DNA of 64,000 nucleotides, from positions 1,058-65,057 of the IMG/VR virus record IMGVR_UViG_3300030376_000575. One strand, written 5' to 3'. The stretch is from a virus. Its lineage: Duplodnaviria > Caudoviricetes. Both the position numbers and the translations under genes were made by a program. The notes under the pieces were generated by a model, which worked only from the letters and a program-made list of their open reading frames with translations, did no database searches and had not been told where the DNA came from. Every line of letters starts with the position of its first letter. Position 1 is the stretch's first letter. Positions 2,323 to 64,000 of the stretch are shown one piece after another.

Positions 2323-5300
2323 ATGGCTCAAACATATACTAGACAAAGTTCAATAGCTGATGGAGATACTATTACTGCTGCGTTGTTTAACAACGAATAT
2401 AATCAACTCTTAAATGCGTTTGCTTATAGCTCAAGCAGTGCTTCATCTACAGGACACAGACATGATGGATCTACAGCACAAGGCGGTAATATTTATAAAA
2501 TAGGTGACTTAGATTTTCTTAATAAAATAGAAGCTGATAGTACTAACAATCGTTGGGGAATTTATGTAGAAGTATCTAGTGCAGCCGTAGAGCAAGTAAG
2601 AATATCTGATGGTGTAGTATCTCCTGTTACAGACAGTGACGTTGATCTTGGTACAAGCTCGTTATATTTTAAAAATGCTTACATAGATGCTATCACTACT
2701 ACAGGTAACGTAGCTGTAGGTGGTAACTTAACTGTTACAGGTACTACTGCATTTAACGGTGGTACGTTAACGCTAGGTGATTCAGCTTCTGATAACGTAG
2801 TGTTTGGTGCTGACATTAACAGTAATATGATTCCTAACACAGACAGTGCTTATGATCTTGGTAGCTCTTCACAGGAATGGAGAGACTTATACTTAGACGG
2901 TACTGCACACATTGATACGCTAGACGTAGATGTAAACGCTACCGTTGCAGGTACATTAGGTGTTACAGGCATTGCTACTTTTACTGATGATATTATTATT
3001 GGTGACGGTAAAACTATTGGTTCTGCTTCAGATGTTGACGCTATAACAATAGCAGCTAATGGTCAGCTTACACTTACACAAACTTTAATTGGTACAGCGT
3101 TAGACATTAGCGGTGACATTGATGTAGATGGTACAACTAATCTAGATGTAGTTGATATTGACGGAGCTGTAGATATGGCTAGTACGCTTGCGGTTGCAGG
3201 AGTACTAACAGGAGCTTCTCTAGATATTTCAGGTGACATTGATATTGATGGTACATCTAACCTTGACATTGTAGACATAGATGGCGCAGTTGATATGGCT
3301 ACAACACTTGCTGTTGCAGGTAACGTAGACTTTAACGGTGATTTAGATGTTGATGGCACTACAAATTTAGACGTAGTAGACATAGATGGTGCTGTAGATA
3401 TGGCTTCTACATTAGCAGTTGCAGGTGTTTTAACAGGCGCATCTTTAGATATTAGTGGTGATATAGACATAGACGGTACTTCAAACTTAGACATAGTTGA
3501 TATTGACGGTGCAGTTGATATGGCTACTACACTTACAGTTGGTGGTGAAATAACAGCAGCTAGTTTAGATATATCAGGCAACGTAGACATTGATGGTACA
3601 CTTGAAACAGATGCACTATCTTTAAACGGTACAACAGTTACAGCTACTGCAGCAGACATAAATTTAATAGATGGTATAACTAACGGAACAGTTATAGCAA
3701 GTAAAGCAATCGTTACAGATGCTAACATAGACATAACTGGTGGTAGAAATATTACTATTAGTGGTGAGTTAGACGCTGCAACCTTAGACATATCAGGTGA
3801 TGCAGACATAGACGGTACTTTAGAAGCTGATGCTATTACTGTAAATGGTACAGCTTTGGCAAGTGTTATTGCAGGAACTACAGTAACTAACGCTACAACT
3901 GCTGCAGTGGCTACAACAGTTACAATCACTGACAACGAAAGCACAAACGAAAACAACGCTATTGTCTTTACAGCAGGTGGAGACTTAGACGGTGGTAACT
4001 TAGGTTTAGAATCAGATGGTGATTTAAAATACAACCCAAGCACAGGAACTCTTTCTGCAACTAACATTTCAGTTAGCGGTACTCTTAGTACTGTAGACTC
4101 AGTTACTATGAGTGCTAACAACGCTGTTGTATTTGAAGGTGCTACTGCTGATGCATACGAAACTACACTTACTATTGTAGATGCTACAGCAGATAGAACA
4201 ATTACTTTACCTAACGTATCAGGTACAGTTCCTGTATTAGCTGCAGCAAGTAATACACAAATTACTTCTACACCTGCAGAACTTAATATCTTAGACGGTG
4301 TTACAAGTACTGCTGCAGAGTTAAACATCCTTGATGGTGTTACAAGTACTGCGGCTGAACTTAATGCCTTAGACGGCATCACTGCTGTAGTAGGAGAGCT
4401 TAATGCTCTAGACATAGGTAGTACAGCAATAGGTACGGCAGTAGCTTCTAAAGCTGTTATATTGGACTCTAACAAAGATTATACAGGTGTACGAAACCTT
4501 ACTATAAGCGGTGAGCTTGATGCAGCTACGCTAGATATTAGTGGTGCAATAGATGTTGCAGGCACAGCCAACTTAGATGTCGTAGATGTTGATGGTGCTG
4601 CAAACTTTGCTGCTGATGTAACTTTTGCAGATGGTGCAGACATCATTACGGCTTCAGCAGGAACCTCCAACTTCCGCGCAGGTGTCAACGCGGGTAACAG
4701 CATTGAAAGCGGTGGTAATTATAATACTGTCGTGGGTGATGAAGCGGGTACTGCGATTACTACGGGTGATAACAACACCGCAGTTGGTTCAGCAGCTTTA
4801 GATGCTTGTACTACTGGATCATACAATTCAGCAGTCGGCAGAAATTGTTTGGGAGCTTTAACAACAGGTGGAGAAAATGTTGCTATGGGTTACCAGTCTT
4901 TAGATGCAACTACTACAGGCACAGGCAACACAGCACTTGGTGGTTCTTCTTTAGGAGCAAACACAACAGCAAGTTACAACACAGGAATTGGTTATAATGC
5001 TCTTGCTGGTAATGAAACAGCAACAGGATGTACAGCAGTTGGCGCACATTCTTTAGATGCAAATAATACAGGAAATAACAACACAGCAGTTGGTAAAGAT
5101 GCTTTAGGAGCAAACAGTACAGGTGCAGCAAATACTGCATTAGGTGCAACTGCTTTAGATGCAGCAACAACTGCCAACTATAATGTAGGTATTGGTTATG
5201 CAGCTTTAGGAGCAACTACAACTGGCGCAGATAATACGGCAGTGGGTTCAGGAGCATTGGAAACAAACACCACAGCTTCTAACAACACCGCAGTAGGTCG

Positions 5301-6138
5301 TGCCGCTTTACAAGCAAACACAACAGGATCACTAAACAACGCTTTTGGAAAAGGTACATTAGATGCTAACACAACAGGTAGTGATAACTCAGGATTTGGT
5401 GCAGAGGCTCTTGGTCAAAATACAACAGGTACTGGAAATACTGCTTTTGGATATGCAACTTTAAATGCAAACACAGTTGGAATATCGAATACAGCATTTG
5501 GAAAAAATGCAGGAATGGGTAATACTACTGGAGATGGTAATACTTTTATAGGTAAAGATGCTGGTGATAATAGCACTACTGCAAGCTACAATACTTTAAT
5601 TGGTTTTCGTTCAAGAGCTAATAGTGCTACTGGTTCTAATCAAATAGTTATTGGTACAGGCAACGCTACTTTAACAAGTGGTGGTCTGACTAGATTTACA
5701 GTAGGTGATGGATCAAACAACTCTCACATTGCTTTAGGAGCTTCTGGAGATTGGTCAGGTACTTCAGATGAAAGATTTAAAAAGAATATTAAAGATTCTA
5801 ATATTGGTTTAGATTTTATTACTGAGTTAAGACCTATTACATACCAATGGAAAAACGAAGGTGATATACCTAGTTGGGCTAAAAATTATAAAGAAGGCTC
5901 TACTGAATCATATAGAAACTCTAATACTCATCACGGCTTTGTAGCTCAAGAAGCAAAAGCAGTTATAGATAAATATCCTGAAATAGCAAATGGTTTTCAG
6001 TTTTGGTCAGAAGACGATGATGGACAACAAAATATTGCTTATGGTGCTTTAATGCCAATGATGGTCAAAGCAGTCCAAGAACTTTCAGCAGAAATAGAAG
6101 AATTAAAAAACACTAAATGTAAATGTAACGAGGAATAG
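2323..6138 (+). CDS. Tail fibre with C-terminal intramolecular chaperone (peptidase S74-like)
   Basis: 1271 aa. Virion-anchor N-terminus MAQTYTRQSS..DGDTITA, LDISGDIDxDG repeats, 14-aa NTAVGxxALxxNTTG beta-roll repeats, SDERFKKNI...LRPITYQW chaperone motif and terminal coiled coil. Confidence 0.9.
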   Translation: MAQTYTRQSSIADGDTITAALFNNEYNQLLNAFAYSSSSASSTGHRHDGSTAQGGNIYKIGDLDFLNKIEADSTNNRWGIYVEVSSAAVEQVRISDGVVSPVTDSDVDLGTSSLYFKNAYIDAITTTGNVAVGGNLTVTGTTAFNGGTLTLGDSASDNVVFGADINSNMIPNTDSAYDLGSSSQEWRDLYLDGTAHIDTLDVDVNATVAGTLGVTGIATFTDDIIIGDGKTIGSASDVDAITIAANGQLTLTQTLIGTALDISGDIDVDGTTNLDVVDIDGAVDMASTLAVAGVLTGASLDISGDIDIDGTSNLDIVDIDGAVDMATTLAVAGNVDFNGDLDVDGTTNLDVVDIDGAVDMASTLAVAGVLTGASLDISGDIDIDGTSNLDIVDIDGAVDMATTLTVGGEITAASLDISGNVDIDGTLETDALSLNGTTVTATAADINLIDGITNGTVIASKAIVTDANIDITGGRNITISGELDAATLDISGDADIDGTLEADAITVNGTALASVIAGTTVTNATTAAVATTVTITDNESTNENNAIVFTAGGDLDGGNLGLESDGDLKYNPSTGTLSATNISVSGTLSTVDSVTMSANNAVVFEGATADAYETTLTIVDATADRTITLPNVSGTVPVLAAASNTQITSTPAELNILDGVTSTAAELNILDGVTSTAAELNALDGITAVVGELNALDIGSTAIGTAVASKAVILDSNKDYTGVRNLTISGELDAATLDISGAIDVAGTANLDVVDVDGAANFAADVTFADGADIITASAGTSNFRAGVNAGNSIESGGNYNTVVGDEAGTAITTGDNNTAVGSAALDACTTGSYNSAVGRNCLGALTTGGENVAMGYQSLDATTTGTGNTALGGSSLGANTTASYNTGIGYNALAGNETATGCTAVGAHSLDANNTGNNNTAVGKDALGANSTGAANTALGATALDAATTANYNVGIGYAALGATTTGADNTAVGSGALETNTTASNNTAVGRAALQANTTGSLNNAFGKGTLDANTTGSDNSGFGAEALGQNTTGTGNTAFGYATLNANTVGISNTAFGKNAGMGNTTGDGNTFIGKDAGDNSTTASYNTLIGFRSRANSATGSNQIVIGTGNATLTSGGLTRFTVGDGSNNSHIALGASGDWSGTSDERFKKNIKDSNIGLDFITELRPITYQWKNEGDIPSWAKNYKEGSTESYRNSNTHHGFVAQEAKAVIDKYPEIANGFQFWSEDDDGQQNIAYGALMPMMVKAVQELSAEIEELKNTKCKCNEE
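3100..3600 (+). repeat. Internal 75-codon duplication in fibre (DVDGTTNLDVVDIDGAVDMASTLAVAGVLTGASLDISGDIDIDGTSNLDIVDIDGAVDMATTL x2)
   Basis: The peptide block is repeated identically near 3121 and 3346 with synonymous DNA differences. Confidence 0.9.
4260..4410 (+). repeat. 13-aa coding tandem repeats (TSTxAELNxLDGx, about 4 copies)
   Basis: ITSTPAELNILDGVTSTAAELNILDGVTSTAAELNALDGITAVVGELNALD in the translation. Confidence 0.9.
5520..5636 (+). repeat. 117-bp direct repeat, copy 1
   Basis: Identical to 63884-64000 except A5548 versus C63912. Confidence 0.95.
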
Positions 6139-6140
6139 AC

Positions 6141-6443
6141 ATGGCACAAACAGTAGCAGAAGTGTTAAGCGCGGCAACCGATAGCGTCACCGTAATTAAC
6201 GATATTAATTCAAAGGGCAAAGCATCAGATCATGTTAACGCATCCGATCCGTCTGCGGGAGTCACACAGGCAGATGCAAATGCTAGAGTAAAAGCAAACG
6301 TAGATCATTTATCTACAGTCCTGGCTTATGCACCAGTAGATTCAGGTGACGATACTCCTGATGTAGCTGGATCAAGTGATGATAAATCATCTTACACCAC
6401 AGCAATTAGCACTGGTAATACTTATATTTCAAATAATAGCTAG
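6141..6443 (+). CDS. Small fibre-associated protein (assembly/chaperone candidate)
   Basis: 100-aa ORF directly after the fibre. Function inferred from position only. Confidence 0.55.
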   Translation: MAQTVAEVLSAATDSVTVINDINSKGKASDHVNASDPSAGVTQADANARVKANVDHLSTVLAYAPVDSGDDTPDVAGSSDDKSSYTTAISTGNTYISNNS

Positions 6444-6451
6444 GAAGTTCT

Positions 6452-6616
6452 ATGGATTTTATAATTTGGATATTAATAATAGTTGCAGTTGCTTCAGTTG
6501 TAGTCGCAGTAACTCCTACACCTAAAGATAATAAATGGTTAAAAAAAGGTTACAAATGTATTGAAGTTTTAGCTTTAAACGTTTGGAAAGCAAAGGACAA
6601 GCAATGCCTACGGTGA
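6452..6616 (+). CDS. Holin-like membrane microprotein (54 aa, absent from ORF track)
   Basis: MDFIIWILIIVAVASVVVAVTPTPKDNKWLKKGYKCIEVLALNVWKAKDKQCLR. One TM helix followed by a TPTPKD motif seen in small phage holin-like proteins. Confidence 0.6.
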   Translation: MDFIIWILIIVAVASVVVAVTPTPKDNKWLKKGYKCIEVLALNVWKAKDKQCLR

Positions 6617-6786
6617 AGGATTCTCTATCTAAACTAGAAGCTCACGAGAGAGAATGCGCAATCCGATATGAGTACATAGAAAAAAGACTAGACGAAGGTT
6701 CTGCTAAATTTAAAAAACTAGAAAATATGATATGGGCGGTATACCCATTTATTCTAGCATCCATAGTTTTTGCAAAGTTTGTTTAA
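6604..6786 (+). CDS. Coiled-coil protein with C-terminal TM helix (lysis-region membrane protein)
   Basis: MPTVKDSLSKLEAHERECAIRYEYIEKRL...MIWAVYPFILASIVFAKFV. ATG at 6604 preferred over the track start at 6583. Confidence 0.6.
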   Translation: MPTVKDSLSKLEAHERECAIRYEYIEKRLDEGSAKFKKLENMIWAVYPFILASIVFAKFV

Positions 6787-6981
6787 ATGAGGAAAAGTGT
6801 CATGAGTATATGGAATAAAATTAAATGTTTTTTCTTTCCTAATCTTTTTGAAACGGTTCGTGCCAAAGATAAAAAAGGCAGATACGTAGCAGATGATCCT
6901 AAAACTGCTAAGAACGAAGCGTATGTCAAAAGAGCTAAGAAAAAGAAGAAAACAGTTAAAAAGAAAAAAGCGAAGAAGTAA
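6787..6981 (+). CDS. Small very basic protein
   Basis: 64 aa ending RAKKKKKTVKKKKAKK, with internal RAKDKKGRYVADDPKT. Confidence 0.6.
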   Translation: MRKSVMSIWNKIKCFFFPNLFETVRAKDKKGRYVADDPKTAKNEAYVKRAKKKKKTVKKKKAKK

Positions 6982-7295
6982 TGGACGAAAATATCAAAAA
7001 GAAGATAGAGCTAGAGATTGAAGTAGATACAGTCCACAGCGAACGAAGCATTAACCCATATCAAAAATGGATACATTTAGCAAAAGCAGTAGATGCATGG
7101 CGTATATTTCCTCGTATGTTTTTGAGTGTCTATATCTTCTTACTTTATTATTCAGTAATGTGGTTTATGGAATTACCTGAACCTAACTTAGAACAATCTG
7201 GTCTTATATCTATAATTGTTGGTGCTGGTGCTGCTTGGTTTGGTCTATACGCAGGTAGCGCAAGTTCTAGTAAAAACTTTAAGGGTGAAGAGTAA
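6981..7295 (+). CDS. Two-TM membrane protein, holin candidate
   Basis: DAWRIFPRMFLSVYIFLLYYSVMWF and SGLISIIVGAGAAWFGLYAG hydrophobic segments; lysis-region context. Confidence 0.6.
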   Translation: MDENIKKKIELEIEVDTVHSERSINPYQKWIHLAKAVDAWRIFPRMFLSVYIFLLYYSVMWFMELPEPNLEQSGLISIIVGAGAAWFGLYAGSASSSKNFKGEE

Positions 7296-7481
7296 TTGAA
7301 AATTTTTATTACCAAGATCGACGATATAGATGGTAAAGAGTATGTTGGACCACAGATAATAGCTAAGGACAGAGAAGACGCAGACAGAGAAGCAGAAGAG
7401 CGCGGTATTATGATCGTAGGTGTTCTCGAAACAGTTATTACAGAAGAGGTGGTTGAAGGATGGAACAAGGTTTTGCATTAA
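7296..7481 (+). CDS. Hypothetical protein
   Basis: 61-aa ORF (TTG start) tightly packed in the operon. Confidence 0.5.
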   Translation: MKIFITKIDDIDGKEYVGPQIIAKDREDADREAEERGIMIVGVLETVITEEVVEGWNKVLH

Positions 7482-7756
7482 TAGCTGAATTAGGGCTACC
7501 TGTAGCTGGTGGTCTAACCATGGCTTATTTCATATTTCTCGTAATGAAACAACTAATGGATGGATTAGTTGGTGAAATCAATACAGTTCAAGCCATATCT
7601 AAAATGCTTATCACCAGAGCAGCAACTATGAATAACGATATGATACGAATAGACACTAGCGTATCTTCCGCATTAAATTTATCACCTGATCTTGATAGAA
7701 TAGCTAGAGCAGAAAATTTTGTTGAAGATGGTAAAATAGATGCAAGACGAGATTAG
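7460..7756 (+). CDS. Single-TM coiled-coil membrane protein (paralogue of 7922-8179)
   Basis: ELGLPVAGGLTMAYFIFLV TM segment and NDMIRI motif shared with 7922-8179. Confidence 0.6.
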   Translation: MEQGFALIAELGLPVAGGLTMAYFIFLVMKQLMDGLVGEINTVQAISKMLITRAATMNNDMIRIDTSVSSALNLSPDLDRIARAENFVEDGKIDARRD

Positions 7757-7922
7757 TTTACCACCGATAGGCGATGGTGAAGCTGTAGTAGATGGATTAT
7801 TTACTCTAATTTACCTACACCCCTCTGATTATTTTATTGTAATAGGTTCTATGAGTTTATTTGCTATCTATGGTTTATCTATCTATGCAGGTATTAAATA
7901 CATACAAAAGAAGTTTAAGTAA
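7740..7922 (+). CDS. Small membrane protein
   Basis: 60 aa with hydrophobic YFIVIGSMSLFAIYGLSIYAGI followed by a basic tail. Confidence 0.55.
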   Translation: MQDEISLPPIGDGEAVVDGLFTLIYLHPSDYFIVIGSMSLFAIYGLSIYAGIKYIQKKFK

Positions 7923-8179
7923 TGGATGTCGTAAAGCTCGTATCTGAGTTTGGTTTCCCTGTAGTGATGGTAGTTGGGTTAGGTTATTTTGTTTACTTTG
8001 TATGGCAAACAATAACTAATAAGATTGATCCTGCTGTACAGGAGATGAAAGTCACTATAATAAGACTTACCGATCAATTACGTCTTTTAGACCAAGATAT
8101 GATAAGATTACAACAAAAAGTAAATACTGTATTAGAATTAAAAGAGGAAAATAAATTAAAGGATGAAAATGAAAAGTAG
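7922..8179 (+). CDS. Single-TM coiled-coil membrane protein (YvrJ/holin-like)
   Basis: EFGFPVVMVVGLGYFVYFVW TM segment, QDMIRL motif and heptad pattern. Confidence 0.6.
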   Translation: MDVVKLVSEFGFPVVMVVGLGYFVYFVWQTITNKIDPAVQEMKVTIIRLTDQLRLLDQDMIRLQQKVNTVLELKEENKLKDENEK

Positions 8180-8639
8180 TTTTTTATGGGTTTTAATAAT
8201 ATATGTGTATGTAGTATTGTTGTCATTATTAATAACTTCCTACGGTTATGCAGATGAAATATCTTACAGATTTAAATCACCTAGTTTTTCTGGAATAAAT
8301 ACTTCTAGCCATTACCTTACGATTGAAAATCAGGAAAGCACTAGAAAACAGGCAATCAAAGATGAGATAGAAGCGTATCAAGATGAACTAGCAAGAGATG
8401 CAGACAACACAACCCTCGCTAGATTTATTAGAAATTTAGAAAGCAGAATCTACGCACAACTATCTAGACAAATGGTAGAACAGTTGTTTGGGGAAACCCC
8501 ACAAGAATCAGGTAAACTAGAACTAGAGGGAAATACGATTGAGTATATTGTTGAAAACGAAACAATTACGCTTACGATCACTGATGAAAAAGGCGGTACA
8601 ACTAACATCACTGTTCCTATTGGCGATTTTACTTTCTAG
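8163..8639 (+). CDS. csgF: Curli assembly component CsgF-like
   Basis: Signal peptide followed by DEISYRFKSPSFSGIN...L.IENQE and FIRNLESRIYAQLSRQ. Adjacent to csgG. Confidence 0.8.
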   Translation: MKMKSSFLWVLIIYVYVVLLSLLITSYGYADEISYRFKSPSFSGINTSSHYLTIENQESTRKQAIKDEIEAYQDELARDADNTTLARFIRNLESRIYAQLSRQMVEQLFGETPQESGKLELEGNTIEYIVENETITLTITDEKGGTTNITVPIGDFTF

Positions 8640-9399
8640 TTGCGCATCTAGGAACGTATTAGAGGGAGCAGGTGTTCCTAATATTGTTATACAGAGTTCT
8701 TCTATATTGTCCCTACAGTCAGAAGAACTTAAAAATTTATCTAAAGCTAAACGAAAACCAATAATAGCTATTTATCCTAATAGTTTCAAAGACCACACGG
8801 GACAACGACAAAGCAATGGAGAGTTTGCTTTATTTAGTACAGCTATCACACAAGCTCCAGAAGCATACTTAATCAGGACTTTAAAGCACGCTGCAGGCGG
8901 TGAATTTTTTAAAGTAGTAGAGAGGGTAGGGTTGGAAAGTTTAACTAAAGAAAGACAAATAATACGTTCTACTCGTGATAGTTTTGAAGAAGATAGTGAT
9001 GTAAAACCTTTACTTTTTGCTGGACTTTTAGTACAAGGAGGAGTTTTGAGTTATGATACTAATATAAAGAGTGGTGGATTAGGTGCTAGATATCTTGGAA
9101 TAGGAGCCAGTAAAGAGTACAGAGAGGATTTAATTACAATTAGTTTGAGGTTAGTTTCTGTTTCTACTGGTGAAGTTCTTATTGAAGTTTTAGTTTCTAA
9201 AAGTATTATTTCTGTTGGTTTGTCTCAAGATCTTTTTAGATTTATAGATCAAGGGAGTAAACTGATAGAAGTAGAAGGTGGTGTCGCAGCGAACGAAAGC
9301 ACATCAATAGCTTTGCAAAAAGCGATAGAAGAAGGAGTATTAGAAATAATTAAAGTAGGTATAAACAAGGGGTATTGGGAATATGAAAAAACTAATTAG
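8584..9399 (+). CDS. csgG: Curli secretion channel CsgG-like outer-membrane lipoprotein
   Basis: Lipobox LLSSC; F.DHTGQRQ, FSTAITQ, FKVVERVGLESLTKERQIIR, GGVLSYDTN, GGLGARYLGIG and LRLVSVSTGEVL motifs. ATG at 8584 preferred. Confidence 0.9.
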   Translation: MKKAVQLTSLFLLAILLSSCASRNVLEGAGVPNIVIQSSSILSLQSEELKNLSKAKRKPIIAIYPNSFKDHTGQRQSNGEFALFSTAITQAPEAYLIRTLKHAAGGEFFKVVERVGLESLTKERQIIRSTRDSFEEDSDVKPLLFAGLLVQGGVLSYDTNIKSGGLGARYLGIGASKEYREDLITISLRLVSVSTGEVLIEVLVSKSIISVGLSQDLFRFIDQGSKLIEVEGGVAANESTSIALQKAIEEGVLEIIKVGINKGYWEYEKTN

Positions 9400-10087
9400 T
9401 TTAACACTGATTTGTTGTGTTGCCTTAGCAGACGATAATGAGATCTATGTAGATCAAGTTGGAGCTACTGCTAATATAGATTTAGAACAACTAGGTTCTG
9501 GAAACATTATAGGTGGATTATTATCTGCTCATGGTTCTATGACTAACTTTGATCTAGACGGCACAACTATGACGTTAGATGTGAATCAAATAGGTAATAA
9601 TAACAAGATGTTAGGTGATATAAACGCAGACTCATTCACAGGGTTGTTTGATTTTGATGGGGATACTAACTCGTATACTATTCAAGTTGATCCTGGAAAC
9701 GCTAATTCGGCAGACAATGCTAATGTGAATGTTAATGTAGATGGGTCAACAAACACTATGACGTTAGACTTAGCTACTAATAGTTTATCTAGTGGGGCAG
9801 ATATAGATACTATAGTACAGGGAAATAGTAATACTGTTCATATTGATTTAGACGTAGATTCAGCTACAAACTATATCGATCTTGACGGTGACAGTAACGC
9901 AGTAGATTATAATGGAGACGGATATGCAGGAGCATATTTTAAAATTGAGCATGACGGTTCAACAAGGACTTTTGACATTGACCAACAGTCTACTCAAGAC
10001 AACGATTGGCTTCGTGTTATTTCTAATGGTTCTGGTGGCACTTATTGCATACAGCAAAACGATCAAGGCACAAGTACCTCTTGCTGA
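9383..10087 (+). CDS. Secreted curlin-like (CsgA/CsgB-like) beta-solenoid protein
   Basis: Sec signal MKKLISLTLICCVALA. Rich in N/D/G/Q with repeated Q-x-G-x-x-N units (DQVGATAN, EQLGSGN, NQIGNNN, VQGNSN). Directly after csgG. Confidence 0.6.
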   Translation: MKKLISLTLICCVALADDNEIYVDQVGATANIDLEQLGSGNIIGGLLSAHGSMTNFDLDGTTMTLDVNQIGNNNKMLGDINADSFTGLFDFDGDTNSYTIQVDPGNANSADNANVNVNVDGSTNTMTLDLATNSLSSGADIDTIVQGNSNTVHIDLDVDSATNYIDLDGDSNAVDYNGDGYAGAYFKIEHDGSTRTFDIDQQSTQDNDWLRVISNGSGGTYCIQQNDQGTSTSC

Positions 10088-11108
10088 AAGTATAGGAAGT
10101 ATAACCGAGCTTAAAGGCACTACTAGAGTAGTGAGAGATAAACCGTATGAAAGTGAGATTGATTTCCCACTAAACTCTATGGATAAATTAGAGACAGCTA
10201 TCGGTCGTATGGGTGTTACGTTCAGAGACGAAACGACTATACGTCTTACAGAACACAGTAATGTTATTATTGACAAGTTTGTATTTGATCCTGACCCCAG
10301 CAAATCTAGTATGGCTCTTAATTTTATTAAAGGCACAGGTCGATTCATAAGTAGTAAAAAACCTCGTATACCAAAAGATAACATCAGTATTAAAACTAAT
10401 TCTGCCACGATAGGAATTAGAGGCACAGACTTCACACTCACAGTAAAAGAGACTGGGGAAACTCTTGTCATATTACTACCAGACGAAAATGGTGATGCTA
10501 GTGGTGAAATCACTGTAAATACTGCACTAGGTCAAGTGGTGTTAAATAAACCTTATGAAGCAACAACTGTGTATAATTTTGAAACTTCGCCTACACCAGC
10601 TGTTATTTTAGATCTGACTTTAGATATGATTGATAACTCTTTGATTGTTAATCCACCAAAAAGCGTACAAGAACAAACAGATGAATCTGCTTCTGTAGCA
10701 GATAACTTACTTGACGTTGATTTTTTAGAGTTTGATGAATTAGATCAAGACGAACTAGAACAAGATGATTTAGAATACACAGAACTTGATATAGATTACC
10801 TCGCAGGTAACTTCCTTGAAGATTTATTAGATGTAATTCAAGAAGTCGATGAACTTAGTAAAGCTGAAAAGTCTTTATCTGCTAGTGGGGTTAAAGGAAC
10901 AGCAGTAGGTTATGATAGCGATACTCAAATAAGTACATTCGTAAGTGATGCAGAAGTTAAATTCATAAGACAGATAGAAGATAGCTTACAAATGCAAATA
11001 TCAAAAGACGGTTCGTACAGTATAAGAATAGAACAAGAAGGGAAAGTTAATCAAGTTTCTGTCAACGGTGGCAGTTCATCGAACATCAATATTAAACAAG
11101 GTAGTTAA
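10026..11108 (+). CDS. FecR-domain periplasmic protein
   Basis: LETAIGRMGVTFRDETTIRLTEHSNVIID, IKGTGRFIS and TNSATIGIRGTDF FecR-type motifs. Acidic linker. ATG at 10026 preferred. Confidence 0.8.
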   Translation: MVLVALIAYSKTIKAQVPLAESIGSITELKGTTRVVRDKPYESEIDFPLNSMDKLETAIGRMGVTFRDETTIRLTEHSNVIIDKFVFDPDPSKSSMALNFIKGTGRFISSKKPRIPKDNISIKTNSATIGIRGTDFTLTVKETGETLVILLPDENGDASGEITVNTALGQVVLNKPYEATTVYNFETSPTPAVILDLTLDMIDNSLIVNPPKSVQEQTDESASVADNLLDVDFLEFDELDQDELEQDDLEYTELDIDYLAGNFLEDLLDVIQEVDELSKAEKSLSASGVKGTAVGYDSDTQISTFVSDAEVKFIRQIEDSLQMQISKDGSYSIRIEQEGKVNQVSVNGGSSSNINIKQGS

Positions 11109-11139
11109 AATATTGATCTATTTAGGTTAAACTAGAAAC

Positions 11140-11562
11140 ATGGGTATACAAACAAACATAATACTGGGTGGTTTATTATTAGCGAGTTTGGGTGGAAGTG
11201 TTATGTATATCAATATGCAGAACTCAAAAATAGATAAACTTAACATAGAGTTAAGCGTAGCGATTACTAATCAAGAAGTGTTAAAAGCCTCAGTAGAAAA
11301 AAGTAATAAAGAGCTACAAGATCAATTAGATAGAGAAAAGATAAGTCAGGAAAAAATAGCAGAATTAACAAAAGTGAGTAATGAAGCTCGTAAAGAAGTA
11401 AGTAAATTGAGAAACACATTCGCTAGACATGATCTAAATAGTCTAGCCATAGCAAAAGGTAATTTAGTAGAAAATATTATTAATAAAGGCACAGCTAGGG
11501 TGAATAAAGAATTAGTAGACCTAACTAATCCGAGGCAGTTTGATGAAAGTATTACTAATTAG
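11140..11562 (+). CDS. Inner-membrane spanin (Rz-like) candidate
   Basis: N-terminal TM segment (IILGGLLLASLGGSVMYI) followed by a long coiled coil; upstream of a lipoprotein and the endolysin. Confidence 0.6.
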   Translation: MGIQTNIILGGLLLASLGGSVMYINMQNSKIDKLNIELSVAITNQEVLKASVEKSNKELQDQLDREKISQEKIAELTKVSNEARKEVSKLRNTFARHDLNSLAIAKGNLVENIINKGTARVNKELVDLTNPRQFDESITN

Positions 11563-11935
11563 TTTTATATTATTGACAACTGGGTGTTCTAGCGTATTAT
11601 CTAAGCCACCTAAAGTTGACCCAGTAGAAATCATTACAGTACAAAAACCTGCACCGATGTATCACCCACCGTTACCAGAAGCGGTTTCTCCCGCTGTAGT
11701 TAAATGGAAAATATTAAACCCAGAAACAATGCGAGAGTATATGACGAACTACGAAAAAGGAGATGCTCCTGCTGTAGCTTACTATTCACTGACTACACAA
11801 GGCTATGAAAACCTTTCTAATAACATAGCCGATGTAAAACGGTACATACGACAAAATTTAGCTATAATAGAATACTATAGAGATAATGATCCAACGGTAG
11901 AGGATGATCAAGATGGACAAACAGAAACTAATTGA
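11540..11935 (+). CDS. Outer-membrane lipoprotein spanin (Rz1-like) candidate
   Basis: Lipobox LTTGC and proline-rich PPKVDP...PAPMYHPPLP. Overlaps the 3' end of the i-spanin candidate. Confidence 0.6.
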   Translation: MMKVLLISFILLTTGCSSVLSKPPKVDPVEIITVQKPAPMYHPPLPEAVSPAVVKWKILNPETMREYMTNYEKGDAPAVAYYSLTTQGYENLSNNIADVKRYIRQNLAIIEYYRDNDPTVEDDQDGQTETN

Positions 11936-12323
11936 AGAATTAAAAAGAGATGAAGGGGTTAGATTTAAACCATATCATTGTTCTGCAGATAAACTAACTA
12001 TCGGTGTAGGAAGAAACTTAGATGACGTAGGTATAAGTGAAGCCGAGTCTGATTTTTTATTAGCTAATGATATAGATAATTGTGTGTCTGAATTAAAAAG
12101 AACTTTTAACTGGTACGAAGGTTTATCTAATGTTCGTCAAAGAGTTATGATTAATATGTGTTTTAATTTAGGGCTTAGTAGGTTAATGAATTTTAAAAAC
12201 TTTCTAGGTGCGGTTGAGTCAAAAGATTACACTAAAGCAGGTGTTGAGATGTTAGATTCAAAATGGGCTAGACAAGTTGGACCCAGAGCAACTAGATTAA
12301 AAGATATGATGGTAGAGGGGTAA
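11913..12323 (+). CDS. Endolysin, phage lysozyme (GH24-like)
   Basis: LKRDEGVRFKPYHCSADKLTIGVGRNL catalytic region; INMCFNLG and MLDSKWARQVGPRA motifs. Confidence 0.9.
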   Translation: MDKQKLIEELKRDEGVRFKPYHCSADKLTIGVGRNLDDVGISEAESDFLLANDIDNCVSELKRTFNWYEGLSNVRQRVMINMCFNLGLSRLMNFKNFLGAVESKDYTKAGVEMLDSKWARQVGPRATRLKDMMVEG

Positions 12324-12324
12324 A

Positions 12325-14187
12325 ATGCCTTTAAGTAAATTTATATTTCGTCCAGGAATAAATAGAGAAGGAACTGACTACGATAACGAAGGAGGTTGGT
12401 TTGATGTTAATCTTGTTCGTTTTAAAAATGGCAGACCTCAAAAAATAGGAGGCTGGGCTAAAAACACACTACAGACATTCTTAGGCAAAGCTAGAGCGTT
12501 ACATGCTTGGGTTGCTTTATCTGGAACTAAATTTTTAGGATTAGGAACAACTTTAAAATACTATATTAAAGAAGGTGATAACTTTAATGATATCACCCCT
12601 ATAAGAAAAACTTCCACTAACAGTATTACATTTTCTGCTACTAATGGCAGTTCTACTATCACAGCTACTGATTCTTCGCACGGAGCTGTAGCAAATGATT
12701 TCGTCACTATTTCTGGGGCTGTCAGTCTTGGGGGTGTGGTTACTGCTGCGGTTTTAAACCAAGAATATCAAATAGTTTCTGTCCCTAGTACAAATACATA
12801 TACTTTTGTGGCTAAAGATACTGACGGTGCTGCAGTCACAGCTAACAGTAGTGATAGCGGTAACGGTGGTTCTGGTGTTGATGGCAGTTATCAAATTAAC
12901 GTAGGTCTAGATACATATATTCAAAGTACAGGTTGGGGTGTCGGTACTTGGGGTGCCAGCACGTTTGGTAGCTCTAGTGCTGTTTCTGCAAACAATCAAT
13001 TAAGGTTATGGACACATGATAATTTTGGAGAAGATTTAATTTTGAATCCAAGAGGTGGAGGTATATACAGATGGGTGGAAAATAACGGAATATCAACGAG
13101 AGCTGATGAACTTGCTACTACTTCTGGAGCGGTTAATGTCCCAACACTAGGATTACAAGTTATTACATCTGAAAAAGACAGACATTTAATTGTACTAGGT
13201 GCAGATCCTATGGACGGTAGTTCTCGCAGCGGTGCTATAGATCCTATGTTGATAGCTTTTAGTGATCAAGAAAATCCTTTAGATTTTGAAGCACTGTCTA
13301 CTAACACTGCTGGCAGTTTACGTTTAGATTCCGGTAGCTCTATTATCGGAGCAGTGAAATCTAGGCAAGAGTTATTAATATGGACAGACACAGCTCTATA
13401 CAGTATGCAATTTATTGGACCACCGTTTACTTTTGGCATAAATCTTATTAATGAAAACACAGGTTTAATGGCTCCGAAAGCAGCAGTTACTGCTCCTACT
13501 GGGGTGTTTTGGATGGGTTATGATAATTTTTACACATATACTGGTGCGGTAAAAAAAGTGCCGTGCACAGTTTTAAGTTACGTTTTTGATGATTTTAACT
13601 CAGGTCAAGGATTTAAAACTTTTGGTTTTACTAACACTAAATTTGACGAAGTAGGTTGGTTTTATTGTTCTTCAAGCAGTGAAGAGATAGATAGATACGT
13701 GACCTATAACTATGCTGAAAACGTGTGGACTTATGGTCAATTAGTGAGACATGCTTGGATTGACTCTGGTGTATCAAGTTCTCCTAGAGCTACGACGGAC
13801 AATTATCTCTACACCCATGAATCAGGTTTTGATGCTGATGGTAGCCCTATGACTAATGTGTTTATAGAATCTAGCGATTTTGATATAGCAGACGGAGAAC
13901 AATATGCATTCATATCAAAAATGATTCCAGACTTTAAGTTTTTAGCGAATAGTTCTGGTGGAACAGTTAATTTAGTTTTAAAAACTCGTAATTTTCCAGG
14001 AGATTCCCTCACTACATCAAACACCTCTTCTGTATCGAGTGATACGCAACAGACACACATAAGAGCTAGAGGTAGACAGGCTGTTTTACGTGTAGAATCT
14101 GACGATGATAATGTAAACGGTAATACAGCTACAGGATGGAGACTAGGTGCTACTCGAATGGAAGTTAGACCAGATGGTAGAAGATGA
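12325..14187 (+). CDS. Tail nozzle / packaged-DNA stabilisation protein (P22 gp10-like)
   Basis: 620 aa. RPGINREGTDY..EGGW, DNFGEDL, LIAFSDQENP, FIGPPFTF and WRLGATRMEVRPDGRR motifs. Confidence 0.75.
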   Translation: MPLSKFIFRPGINREGTDYDNEGGWFDVNLVRFKNGRPQKIGGWAKNTLQTFLGKARALHAWVALSGTKFLGLGTTLKYYIKEGDNFNDITPIRKTSTNSITFSATNGSSTITATDSSHGAVANDFVTISGAVSLGGVVTAAVLNQEYQIVSVPSTNTYTFVAKDTDGAAVTANSSDSGNGGSGVDGSYQINVGLDTYIQSTGWGVGTWGASTFGSSSAVSANNQLRLWTHDNFGEDLILNPRGGGIYRWVENNGISTRADELATTSGAVNVPTLGLQVITSEKDRHLIVLGADPMDGSSRSGAIDPMLIAFSDQENPLDFEALSTNTAGSLRLDSGSSIIGAVKSRQELLIWTDTALYSMQFIGPPFTFGINLINENTGLMAPKAAVTAPTGVFWMGYDNFYTYTGAVKKVPCTVLSYVFDDFNSGQGFKTFGFTNTKFDEVGWFYCSSSSEEIDRYVTYNYAENVWTYGQLVRHAWIDSGVSSSPRATTDNYLYTHESGFDADGSPMTNVFIESSDFDIADGEQYAFISKMIPDFKFLANSSGGTVNLVLKTRNFPGDSLTTSNTSSVSSDTQQTHIRARGRQAVLRVESDDDNVNGNTATGWRLGATRMEVRPDGRR

Positions 14188-14513
14188 GCAAATTATTACA
14201 AACCAGACTTCCCATAGAAATGGAAGAAAGTGTCAGTGGATCAACATACAATCGATTAGTTAGGATATTAGAAATAAATTTAGGAGAGTTTGATCCTGAT
14301 AATATAAGGCAAATAAACACAACAGAAAGGGATAAACTAAAATTCAATGAAGGCAGTATAGTATGGAACACGGACATTGGTGCTTTACAGGTTTATGAAG
14401 GATTATACTGGCAAAATATTTCAACACCTACAACACCTAGTGGTTTTGAAGCAGTAGCTAGTGTAGGGAAGGTTACATTAAAGTTAGGCGGTTCAACAAC
14501 AATAAACGTATAG
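14184..14513 (+). CDS. Virion structural protein (hypothetical)
   Basis: 109-aa ORF overlapping the nozzle gene stop. Confidence 0.55.
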   Translation: MSKLLQTRLPIEMEESVSGSTYNRLVRILEINLGEFDPDNIRQINTTERDKLKFNEGSIVWNTDIGALQVYEGLYWQNISTPTTPSGFEAVASVGKVTLKLGGSTTINV

Positions 14514-14521
14514 AGGAAGAT

Positions 14522-14695
14522 ATGAAGATAAAAGGTGTAAAAGTAGATAAACTTAACAAAAGACAACAAACAGCTTTGAAAAAACACGCAAAGCACCATA
14601 CTAAAAAACACGTCAGTAACATGGTAACAGCAATGAATAAAGGTGTCACCTTCACACAATCCCATAAAGACGCTATGAAGAAAGTTGGTGTTTAG
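14522..14695 (+). CDS. Small basic His/Lys-rich protein (57 aa, absent from ORF track)
   Basis: MKIKGVKVDKLNKRQQTALKKHAKHHTKKHVSNMVTAMNKGVTFTQSHKDAMKKVGV, preceded by SD-like GAGG. Confidence 0.7.
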   Translation: MKIKGVKVDKLNKRQQTALKKHAKHHTKKHVSNMVTAMNKGVTFTQSHKDAMKKVGV

Positions 14696-62189: not shown

Positions 62190-64000
62190 ATGGCAAGCAC
62201 ATATGTAAATGATTTAAGACTCAACGAGATGGCTACTGGTGACGGTAGTGGAACGTGGGGTACAACAACAAACACTAACTTAGAGCTTATTGCAGAAGGA
62301 TTAAGTTTTGGTACAGAAGCAATAACAACAAATGCAGACACACACACTTCAACTGTAGCTGATGGTGCAACAGACCCTGCTAGGTCAATCTATATTAAAT
62401 ACACTGGAACACTCGATTCAGCTTGTACTATTACAATAGCACCAAACACAATAAGTAGATTACACTTTATCGAGAATGGCACAAGTGGTTCGCAAAATAT
62501 TATAATTTCACAAGGTAGTGGTGCTAACGTAACTATCCCAGCTGGTGATACTAAAGCAGTATACTTAGATGGTGCTGGTAGTGGTGCAGCGGTTGTTGAT
62601 GCTTTTGCCAGTTTAAACGTAGTAGATTTAAAAGTAGAAGATGATTTAACTGTTACAGATGATCTCATAGTTAATGGTGATATAGACCTAGAAGGTTCTA
62701 TTGATGTAAATGGTACAGCTAACCTAGATGTCGTAGACGTTGATGGCGCTGTTAACTTTGCCGCAGACGTAACGTATGCAGATGGTGCAGACATCATCAC
62801 GGCTTCAGCTGGCACATCAAACTTCAGAGCGGGTGTCAACGCGGGTAACTCAATTGAATCAGGGGGTAATTACAATGTCTGCGTAGGTGATGAAGCAGGT
62901 ACTGCGATCACTACTGGTGATTCAAATACGCTTATCGGTTATCTAGCGGGTGACGCTGTAACAACGGTAAGTTATATAACCGCTGTTGGAGAAAAAGCAC
63001 TAAGTGCGAATACTTCTGGACAAAAAAATACGGCAGTAGGTAGAGCAGCTTTACAATCAATAACAACAGTTAATAACAACACCGCAGTAGGTTATAACTG
63101 TTTATCAGGTGGGAGCAACGCTGCTTCTGGAAATACTGGTGTTGGTGCAGATGTATTATCCGCAAACACTTCTGGAGAAAATAACACAGGAGTTGGATTG
63201 GATTCTTTAAAATCAAACACAACTGGTGCTGAGAACGTAGCAGTCGGCACAGAAGCCCTAGAAGCGAATACTACTGGTGGTTCAAATACAGCAATAGGTA
63301 TGAGAGCTATGGAAGCAACTACTACTGGTGGAAATAACACAGCGGTGGGTATCTTTGCTATGGGTGTTAATACTACGGGACAGTTTAATACTGCGGTGGG
63401 TGGAAATTCTTTAGATGCTAATACAACAGGCAGTAATAATTCAGCATTCGGTAGACTAGCGTTAACAGCAAACACAACTGGCTCGCATAATACTGGACTT
63501 GGTTATGAATCATTAAAAGAAAATACAACGGCTTCTTACAACACAGGAATCGGTTATCAAGCGTTAAAGTTAAGCGACACAGGTGCAAATTCTTATAACG
63601 TAGGAGTAGGGGCTAGTGCAGCAACAGCAGCAACTACTGCTCAAGCTGTTACTTGTGTAGGAGGTCGATCAGGTCTTGCACTTACAACTGGAAGTAATAA
63701 TACTTTACTAGGTTATCAAGCTGGAGCTGCAGTAACTACAGGTGCTAGCAACACAGGTGTTGGTACAAATGCTCTGGTAACAAACACCACAGCAACTTAC
63801 AACACGGCAGTCGGTTCTGATGCTTTATATTCAACCACAGTTGGAATATCAAATACAGCAATCGGAAGAAGTGCAGGATATGCTAATACTACTGGAGATG
63901 GTAATACTTTTCTAGGTAAAGATGCTGGTGATAATAGCACTACTGCAAGCTACAATACTTTAATTGGTTTTCGTTCAAGAGCTAATAGTGCTACTGGTTC
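62190..64000 (+). CDS. Tail fibre of the main phage (3' truncated; missing from ORF track)
   Basis: MASTYVNDLRLNEMATGDGSGTWGTTTNTNLELIAE... is open to the window end, with NTAVG/NTTG repeats. Last 117 bp equal 5520-5636, in frame. Confidence 0.9.
   Translation, partial: MASTYVNDLRLNEMATGDGSGTWGTTTNTNLELIAEGLSFGTEAITTNADTHTSTVADGATDPARSIYIKYTGTLDSACTITIAPNTISRLHFIENGTSGSQNIIISQGSGANVTIPAGDTKAVYLDGAGSGAAVVDAFASLNVVDLKVEDDLTVTDDLIVNGDIDLEGSIDVNGTANLDVVDVDGAVNFAADVTYADGADIITASAGTSNFRAGVNAGNSIESGGNYNVCVGDEAGTAITTGDSNTLIGYLAGDAVTTVSYITAVGEKALSANTSGQKNTAVGRAALQSITTVNNNTAVGYNCLSGGSNAASGNTGVGADVLSANTSGENNTGVGLDSLKSNTTGAENVAVGTEALEANTTGGSNTAIGMRAMEATTTGGNNTAVGIFAMGVNTTGQFNTAVGGNSLDANTTGSNNSAFGRLALTANTTGSHNTGLGYESLKENTTASYNTGIGYQALKLSDTGANSYNVGVGASAATAATTAQAVTCVGGRSGLALTTGSNNTLLGYQAGAAVTTGASNTGVGTNALVTNTTATYNTAVGSDALYSTTVGISNTAIGRSAGYANTTGDGNTFLGKDAGDNSTTASYNTLIGFRSRANSATG
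63884..64000 (+). repeat. 117-bp direct repeat, copy 2
   Basis: 116/117 identity to 5520-5636. Confidence 0.95.

Follow-up and report, generated by a model that had tools for sequence, protein, structure and literature searches.

We analysed a 64,000-nucleotide stretch (hereafter the window) of a tailed-phage genome, corresponding to bases 1058-65057 of the 65,057-bp IMG/VR record IMGVR_UViG_3300030376_000575, which has a CheckV completeness of 100%. Nearly all window genes lie on the plus strand, and a plus-strand block at 7460-11108 encodes, in order, a small bitopic membrane and coiled-coil protein (TMa, 7460-7756), a hydrophobic 60-residue open reading frame without a family match (7740-7922), a paralogue of TMa (TMb, 7922-8179), a CsgF-like protein with a signal peptide (8163-8639), a CsgG-like outer-membrane lipoprotein channel (8584-9399), a secreted curlin-like subunit of 234 residues that is the candidate cargo (9383-10087) and an exported FecR-domain protein (from 9951 or 10026 to 11108). 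A candidate holin gene (6981-7295) flanks the block on its 5′ side, and genes for an i-spanin, an o-spanin and an endolysin flank it on its 3′ side. The block is almost certainly the viral type VIII (curli-type) secretion system (T8SS) module already published for SAR11 podophages of the HTVC023P type, here in a form that lacks the adenylate cyclase. A first-pass annotation of the window had recognized CsgF, a lipoprotein CsgG and a signal-peptide-bearing protein in one block, and this is confirmed by Pfam matches to CsgF and CsgG above cut-off and by a readable lipobox and signal peptide. That annotation left a fourth module gene in the span 8163-11108, that of the FecR-domain protein, unnamed.

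PHROG matches in the window include a family A DNA polymerase, a primase, helicases and thymidylate synthase, together with virion and packaging proteins: the large terminase subunit (TerL), portal, major head protein, DNA ejection protein and tail-fibre or tail-spike proteins. Neither a sheath nor a tape-measure protein is among these matches. TerL is 62% identical to that of 023Pt_psg01, 60% identical to that of the Pelagibacter phage HTVC027P and 54% identical to that of HTVC023P. The TerL identities and the PHROG gene set assign the window phage, at the sequence level, to the HTVC023P-type podo-pelagiphages (SAR11-type), and the earlier description of the phage as podovirus-like was correct.

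Wittmers et al. (2022, mSystems; PMC9599517) described the module in HTVC023P-type podophages with the order HK-CsgF-CsgG-CsgA/B-FecR(-CsgA/B-AC), HK denoting a histidine kinase label and AC the adenylate cyclase, and reported it from all 65 GOV2.0 stations and as expressed in metatranscriptomes. In their data CsgC, CsgD and CsgE are absent; CsgE and CsgC are likewise missing from alphaproteobacterial curli loci (PMC9599517) and so are not defining for the wider family. The window shares with their module the phage backbone, the gene order (small ‘HK’ genes, CsgF, CsgG, CsgA/B-like, FecR) and the missing CsgE, CsgC and CsgD, but it has neither the second curlin gene nor the adenylate cyclase that are ‘frequently’ present there. 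The T4-like myophages HTVC008M (KC465899) and Melnitz (MZ577097), with genomes of 141-147 kb, carry the two small transmembrane (TM) genes followed by csgF, csgG, curlin-repeat and FecR-domain genes in the same order (PMC7029224, PMC9004378). In their GenBank annotation the module extends to a second curlin gene and a cyclase, the latter of the CHASE2 type, and unlike that of the window it does not lie beside lysis genes. The first-pass annotation took the podovirus context and the candidate cargo to be new; both are published for HTVC023P-type phages (PMC9599517), and the cargo is also present in myophages. It also recorded csgF and csgG from some marine T4-like myophages, with a lysis role proposed; a lysis-timing pore was put forward for Melnitz by Buchholz et al. 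(2022; PMC9004378). The module, its podophage setting, the cargo, the FecR-domain protein and the proposed functions are thus already known, and the block is common in marine viromes.

Channel components

The CsgF-like protein scores 66.7 bits against Pfam CsgF (PF10614; E 2.9e-18, cut-off 25.8 bits). Alignment with E. coli CsgF shows an invariant N-terminal F-x-x-P-x-F-x-G motif (F37, P40, F42 and G44), and this N-terminal segment is the predicted docking element for the CsgG barrel. The open reading frame at 8539-9399 matches Pfam CsgG (PF03783; E 1.8e-46) with 158.5 bits against a cut-off of 20.8. Translation probably begins at the ATG at 8584, which yields MKKAVQLTSLFLLAILLSSC with the lipobox Cys; the lipobox reads LLSSC, and its Cys does not vary when the protein is aligned with E. 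coli CsgG and the myophage proteins. The protein is 37% identical to E. coli CsgG and 43-49% identical to the CsgG proteins of HTVC008M and Melnitz. A holdfast HfaB reading was rejected, the curli CsgG model scoring 148.5 bits and HfaB 26.2; in NCBIfam the protein thus scores higher as CsgG than as HfaB, yet it falls under the equivalog cut-off.

A Pfam search across the complete genome at E<=1 gave no match to CsgE (PF10627) or CsgC (PF10610), bearing out the absence of both noted in the first pass. The phage module therefore resembles bacterial curli systems such as that of E. coli in its CsgG lipobox, in its CsgF docking motif and, at the level of the family, in curlin repeats, but differs from the bacterial csgBAC/csgDEFG arrangement in lacking CsgE, CsgC and CsgD and in having one cargo gene only.

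The curlin-like cargo

The product of 9383-10087 begins with a signal peptide (…CCVALA/DDNE), and its mature form of about 215 residues carries a conserved C-terminal Cys pair. A single-sequence Pfam scan of the protein found no match at E<=0.1, and the genome contains only one Curlin_rpt-like place. The family is very large: clustered at 90% identity, its metagenomic members form more than 2,168 clusters, and a precomputed Pfam domain is attached to none of these. More distant full-length relatives came from a profile search across 1.84 billion representatives, and 28 of 37 such distant members match Curlin_rpt at E<=1, with a best value of 1.6e-6. Searched against Protein Data Bank (PDB) sequences, the broad family profile matched two solved CsgA structures, 8c50 from Pontibacter korlensis (E 3.8e-10) and 8enq from E. 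coli (E 9e-4); a profile built from close relatives only found no CsgA, which appeared solely with the broader profile. Alignment of the family with E. coli CsgA by hhalign gave a probability of 85% (E 5.9e-6), and the family profile also picks out curlin genes beside csgF-csgG in bacterial genomes.

Because of these sequence profiles, and not because of fold, we assign the cargo to the curlin family at the family level, though not by its single sequence against the Pfam cut-off. The comparison of 9383-10087 with curlin families by profile and structure, which had been suggested at the outset, gave curlin matches for the family profile and hhalign and a sub-threshold Curlin_rpt score for the protein itself. 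An AlphaFold (AF2) model of the cargo is an all-β solenoid with a mean predicted local distance difference test score (pLDDT) of 82. A representative-wide structural search with this model returned CsgA as the top match (8c50_A, Z 17.4, 20% identity); Foldseek against the PDB gave nothing at E<=0.001, only weak β-helix rows. The cargo may form extracellular, CsgG-dependent amyloid fibres; what the analysis shows in this respect is a predicted β-solenoid.

Small membrane proteins of the module

TMa and TMb are paralogues that both belong to phrog_18771 (E 1.1e-22 and 8.6e-26, respectively). Proteins of this family have 85-116 residues, with a single hydrophobic helix at the N terminus and a coiled coil after it. 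The first-pass annotation had called the genes at 7460-7756 and 7922-8179 holin-like and placed them outside the curli genes, but the match to holin PHROGs is weak (E 0.001-0.003; for TMb, phrog_4898 at E 0.003). Each of the two has its own orthologue among the two genes directly 5′ of csgF in HTVC008M and Melnitz, that of TMa aligning with HTVC008M 6900-7181 and Melnitz _97. TM genes outside a T8SS were sought by tblastn against a phage collection and in the locus surveys described below: TMb found matches among 50,697 phage records in csg-carrying phages only, and all 74 related loci for which the sequence reaches far enough have a TM gene homologue 5′ of csgF. Because of the myophage orthologues, the csg-only matches and the locus survey, we read TMa and TMb as components of the curli module and not demonstrably as lysis-cassette genes.

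The published ‘histidine kinase’ label for these small upstream genes is without domain support in our searches: neither HisKA nor HATPase_c was found by Pfam in nine TM family members at E<=1, and a PDB profile search returned only generic coiled coils. The 60-residue open reading frame between TMa and TMb is kept, at 83-95% identity, only in window-type relatives.

The FecR-domain protein

The last module gene encodes a protein with a FecR domain (PF04773; 41.7 bits, above cut-off, E 1.6e-10) that also matches phrog_37870 (E 5.6e-67). Depending on the start codon, it shares 62-137 nucleotides, read in another frame, with the 3′ end of the curlin gene; a similar overlap occurs in relatives, for example at 9356-9441 of locus L019. 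The protein consists of a signal peptide or anchor, the FecR domain, a very acidic linker and a small C-terminal β region. The linker is amphipathic (…LDVDFLEFDELDQDELEQDDLEYTELDIDYL…), and the C terminus, encoded at about 11040-11105, ends in an invariant Q-x-G…N-G-G-x-S-S-x-I-x-I-x-Q tail that resembles a single curlin-type strand motif. This tail could be a fibre- or channel-binding element.

The phage protein is like E. coli FecR in its periplasmic FecR domain, but the C-terminal domain of E. coli FecR is replaced here by the acidic linker and the small C-terminal β domain. Regulators of the E. coli FecR type also have a cytoplasmic N-terminal anti-sigma domain and a partner extracytoplasmic function (ECF) sigma factor, and the phage has neither: the N terminus of its protein is a signal peptide or anchor only, with no cytoplasmic anti-sigma domain, and the genome has no match to the ECF sigma domain Sigma70_r2. 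Because both are missing, its domain content indicates that the protein is not a FecR-type iron regulator. A profile of the protein found nothing below E 0.25 among PDB sequences, and in the Protein Atlas both the FecR-domain protein and TMb fall into virus-only clusters with no further annotation.

Distribution and selection

At least 570 IMG/VR contigs encode a relative of the window CsgG. In a CsgG-anchored survey of 81 non-redundant IMG/VR loci (64-94% CsgG identity), the set TM-CsgF-CsgG-curlin-FecR was always present where the sequence allowed it to be seen; the module thus travels as one unit. A protein with CHASE2 and Guanylate_cyc domains lies 3′ of the FecR gene in 38 of 48 loci. The complete window genome has no cyclase domain (PF00211), and no cyclase was found in the 99%-complete genome that contains locus L011 or in two less complete relatives.

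Comparison with L010, a locus of the same architecture, gave low ratios of nonsynonymous to synonymous substitution rates (dN/dS) for TMa (0.044), TMb (0.051), CsgF (0.10), CsgG (0.089), the curlin-like cargo (0.095) and the FecR-domain protein (0.079). The spanins, the endolysin and the virion protein, taken for comparison, gave 0.07, 0.17 and 0.125, respectively; dS was 0.9-1.25 except in the endolysin (0.51). With dN/dS of 0.04-0.10, all seven module genes are under strong purifying selection. Because dN/dS is low in a lineage without the cyclase, the whole module, with its FecR-domain and small membrane proteins, is maintained there without a cyclic AMP (cAMP) output.

The 78 closest cellular loci, from Alphaproteobacteria and Flavobacteriia (CsgG 36-45% identity), have csgF, csgG and curlin genes, but a search of the 6 kb around csgG found no homologue of the TM, FecR-domain or CHASE2 proteins in these loci; in this, phage modules with TMa/TMb, the FecR-domain protein and the cyclase differ from the cellular ones. 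Two contigs of a ‘Maricaulis sp.’ metagenome-assembled genome (NZMJ01000004.1 and NZMJ01000081.1, loci L100 and L101; 11.8 and 7.2 kb) carry a complete phage-type module including the cyclase, with CsgG 55-58% identical to that of the window. They are probably phage DNA binned into that assembly, since true cellular loci have at most 45% identity and lack the TM, FecR-domain and cyclase genes.

Placement beside lysis genes

The i-spanin (Rz-like; 11140-11562) matches phrog_739 (E 2.2e-12) and has an N-terminal TM helix and a coiled coil. Its gene end is overlapped by that of the o-spanin, an Rz1-like lipoprotein (11540-11935; phrog_812, E 7.3e-15) with an N-terminal …LLTTGC followed by a Pro-rich stretch. 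A T4-type lysozyme endolysin follows at 11904-12323 (PF00959 Phage_lysozyme, E 3.6e-10; phrog_7, E 7.9e-19). All are on the plus strand, and they substantiate the i-spanin, o-spanin and lysozyme genes that the first pass had named 3′ of the module. The candidate holin upstream, also on the plus strand, has 104 residues and two hydrophobic segments and belongs to phrog_10198, which is without annotated function. Its homologues directly precede TMa in T8SS carriers. Four relatives without a T8SS (L213, L229, L230 and L248) keep the i-spanin, the o-spanin and this gene; because it stays beside the spanins there, we regard 6981-7295 as the lysis-cassette partner and the best holin candidate. The T8SS does lie within the lysis cassette, as first described, and that cassette also exists in relatives without it, so lysis is not dependent on the module. 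The Wittmers study is without discussion of this spanin, endolysin and holin context, which the present analysis describes.

An i-spanin-anchored survey of 56 non-redundant loci found the T8SS directly 5′ of the spanins in 30, which is also the window arrangement, and directly 3′ in 10, the latter with the order i-spanin, o-spanin, 6981-type gene, TMa, TMb, CsgF and onward; it was absent within 2 kb in 2 loci, and 14 of the 56 were not determinable. Of the 42 determinable loci, 40 thus have the module next to the spanin pair, in one or the other of two orders. An endolysin gene lies 1-3.1 kb upstream in 22 of 40 CsgG-anchored loci. The surveyed loci belong to related phages, and the spanin adjacency may be inherited synteny. 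A promoter and terminator scan of 5800-14600 found fewer promoter-like sites than in shuffled sequence and no convincing terminator at the module borders, and is uninformative on a separate transcription unit.

This placement invites a reading in which CsgG and CsgF, without a CsgE gate, form an open channel that times lysis or permeabilizes the envelope, with the TM proteins as holin- or antiholin-like partners. The recurrent spanin adjacency in two orders, the nearby endolysin, the missing CsgE and the weak holin match of TMa and TMb all speak for such a pore, which in Melnitz has been advanced in print (PMC9004378). We nevertheless consider it unlikely. Both spanins and an endolysin are already encoded, as is a separate holin candidate with two TM segments, and related phages keep the cassette without a T8SS. 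Myophage modules do not sit beside lysis genes, and adjacency among related phages may only reflect descent. A pore would also leave unexplained a curlin-like cargo and a FecR-domain protein held at dN/dS 0.08-0.10. The proposal of the first pass that the channel is not necessarily the device for outer-membrane lysis, made because a separate spanin pair and endolysin are present and because a cargo gene argues for export, is strengthened by the spanin-only cassettes of relatives, by purifying selection on the cargo and by its curlin-family membership, but it is not new.

An improbable, more specific possibility is that the module-spanin placement is functional and not inherited synteny, with curlin export coupled to lysis such that fibres are laid just before or at lysis. 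Were this so, debris and progeny would stay aggregated or competing phages would be trapped, TMa and TMb would be holin-like inner-membrane timers of the coupling, and the cyclase-less lineage would show coupling, not cAMP signalling, to be the core function.

Other features of the region complete the picture. A 4238-bp contig (L234, IMGVR_UViG_3300028548_008150) carries in succession a second curlin gene, cyclase, i-spanin, o-spanin, 6981-type gene, TMa, TMb and CsgF; with module parts on both sides of the spanins, it could be an artefact of assembly, contain two modules or capture an intermediate in a rearrangement from one of the two arrangements to the other. In many relatives a protein of phrog_1544 (156-164 residues; L019 6340-6810 and homologues) with a glycine-zipper-like N terminus (…GAVAPTIGTALGGPMGGMAANMIADVLG…) is encoded between the endolysin and the module TM gene and may be another lysis-cassette membrane protein. 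The cultured phages HTVC023P and HTVC027P are without a T8SS and have 2-oxoglutarate-Fe(II) oxygenase genes 5′ of their homologue of the 620-residue virion protein; the empty insertion site is not visible in these two phages. Upstream in the window, a 538-residue protein (685-2301) matches a PHROG ‘amidase’ of the lysis category (E 9.6e-79) and, weakly, the virion structural PHROG 3287, which is also the PHROG matched by the 620-residue protein encoded 3′ of the endolysin (12325-14187); the 538-residue protein is possibly a wall hydrolase associated with the virion, or else a structural paralogue. A 1271-residue tail-fibre or tail-spike protein (2323-6138) has several internal repeats that are almost identical to one another (…DISGDIDIDGT.NLD.VDIDGAVDMA.TLAVAG…) and shares a C-terminal region with the partial fibre gene at 62190-63998.

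A model for the module

Taken as a whole, the locus is probably best explained as a minimal curli-type secretion module exporting a curlin-like cargo. For the fibre-export mechanism itself, in which timing, channel assembly, export, fibre formation and the roles of the FecR-domain protein and TMa/TMb are inferred, we put the chances at slightly better than even. The module genes would be transcribed with the late structural and lysis genes, and CsgG would be lipidated, sent to the outer membrane and assembled into an oligomeric channel in whose barrel the Sec-exported CsgF docks through its conserved N-terminal motif. The curlin-like protein, likewise exported by Sec, would cross this channel unfolded and then fold or stack into β-solenoid fibres on the surface of the infected cell, which its SAR11 host, reported to be without curli genes (PMC9599517), would itself be unable to make. 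The FecR-domain protein would be an accessory in the periplasm with no part in iron or sigma regulation and may replace the missing CsgE, with TMa and TMb serving as inner-membrane accessories. Lysis would fall to the endolysin and spanins together with the holin candidate.

Several observations weigh against this model. On its own the window cargo reaches only 14.1 bits against Curlin_rpt (PF07012; cut-off 20.7), over residues 17-41, and its structural model superposes on CsgA with a root-mean-square deviation of 9 Å, tied with unrelated β-helices of the SufD type, such that fold alone is not discriminating. For the FecR-domain protein, AlphaFold with 22 aligned sequences gave a model too poor to use (mean pLDDT 50, predicted template modelling score 0.36). 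The constriction residues of E. coli CsgG (Y51, N55 and F56) differ, with only the Phe kept here and the myophage versions different again, and the properties of the pore may not be those of E. coli CsgG. CsgE, CsgC and a recognizable pair of nucleator and major subunit are absent, and the module's persistent position beside lysis genes may point to a connection with lysis. Clumping was not seen with Melnitz (Buchholz et al., PMC9004378). In the literature searched we found no experiment that demonstrates export, fibres or aggregation for a viral curli module, and no experimental follow-up of the proposed functions.

An ungated CsgG/CsgF pore might instead admit cofactors or nutrients for replication, an option raised by Zaragoza-Solas (2020) and Wittmers (2022) that draws on the failure to find a CsgE gate. 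We judge it very unlikely: it would leave a conserved secreted cargo without a role, and the genes lie among late structural and lysis genes and not among early or metabolic ones. An envelope sensor, in which the pore or fibre, the periplasmic FecR-fold protein and the CHASE2 adenylate cyclase relay cAMP signals from surface to cytoplasm, would account for the cyclase gene after FecR in most relatives' loci (38 of 48), but is highly improbable here given that the cyclase is absent from the complete window genome, the 99%-complete L011 genome and two less complete ones, and that FecR and the rest remain under strong purifying selection in a lineage where the module works without cAMP output, which speaks against cAMP sensing as its central role there.

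For the module, Wittmers et al. proposed aggregation, ‘sibling capture’, superinfection exclusion or import (PMC9599517). The functions put forward in the first-pass annotation, aggregation among them, correspond to these published hypotheses and are not new. What the window adds is a complete cyclase-less variant that keeps the core of pore, cargo and FecR-domain protein without cAMP output, together with a recurrent link of the module to the lysis cassette; the labels ‘histidine kinase’ and ‘iron regulator FecR’ need correction. The question of phage-made surface fibres was posed in 2020-2022, podophages included, and a phage that makes host cells display amyloid-like fibres could alter aggregation in the ocean, particle export, superinfection and gene exchange.

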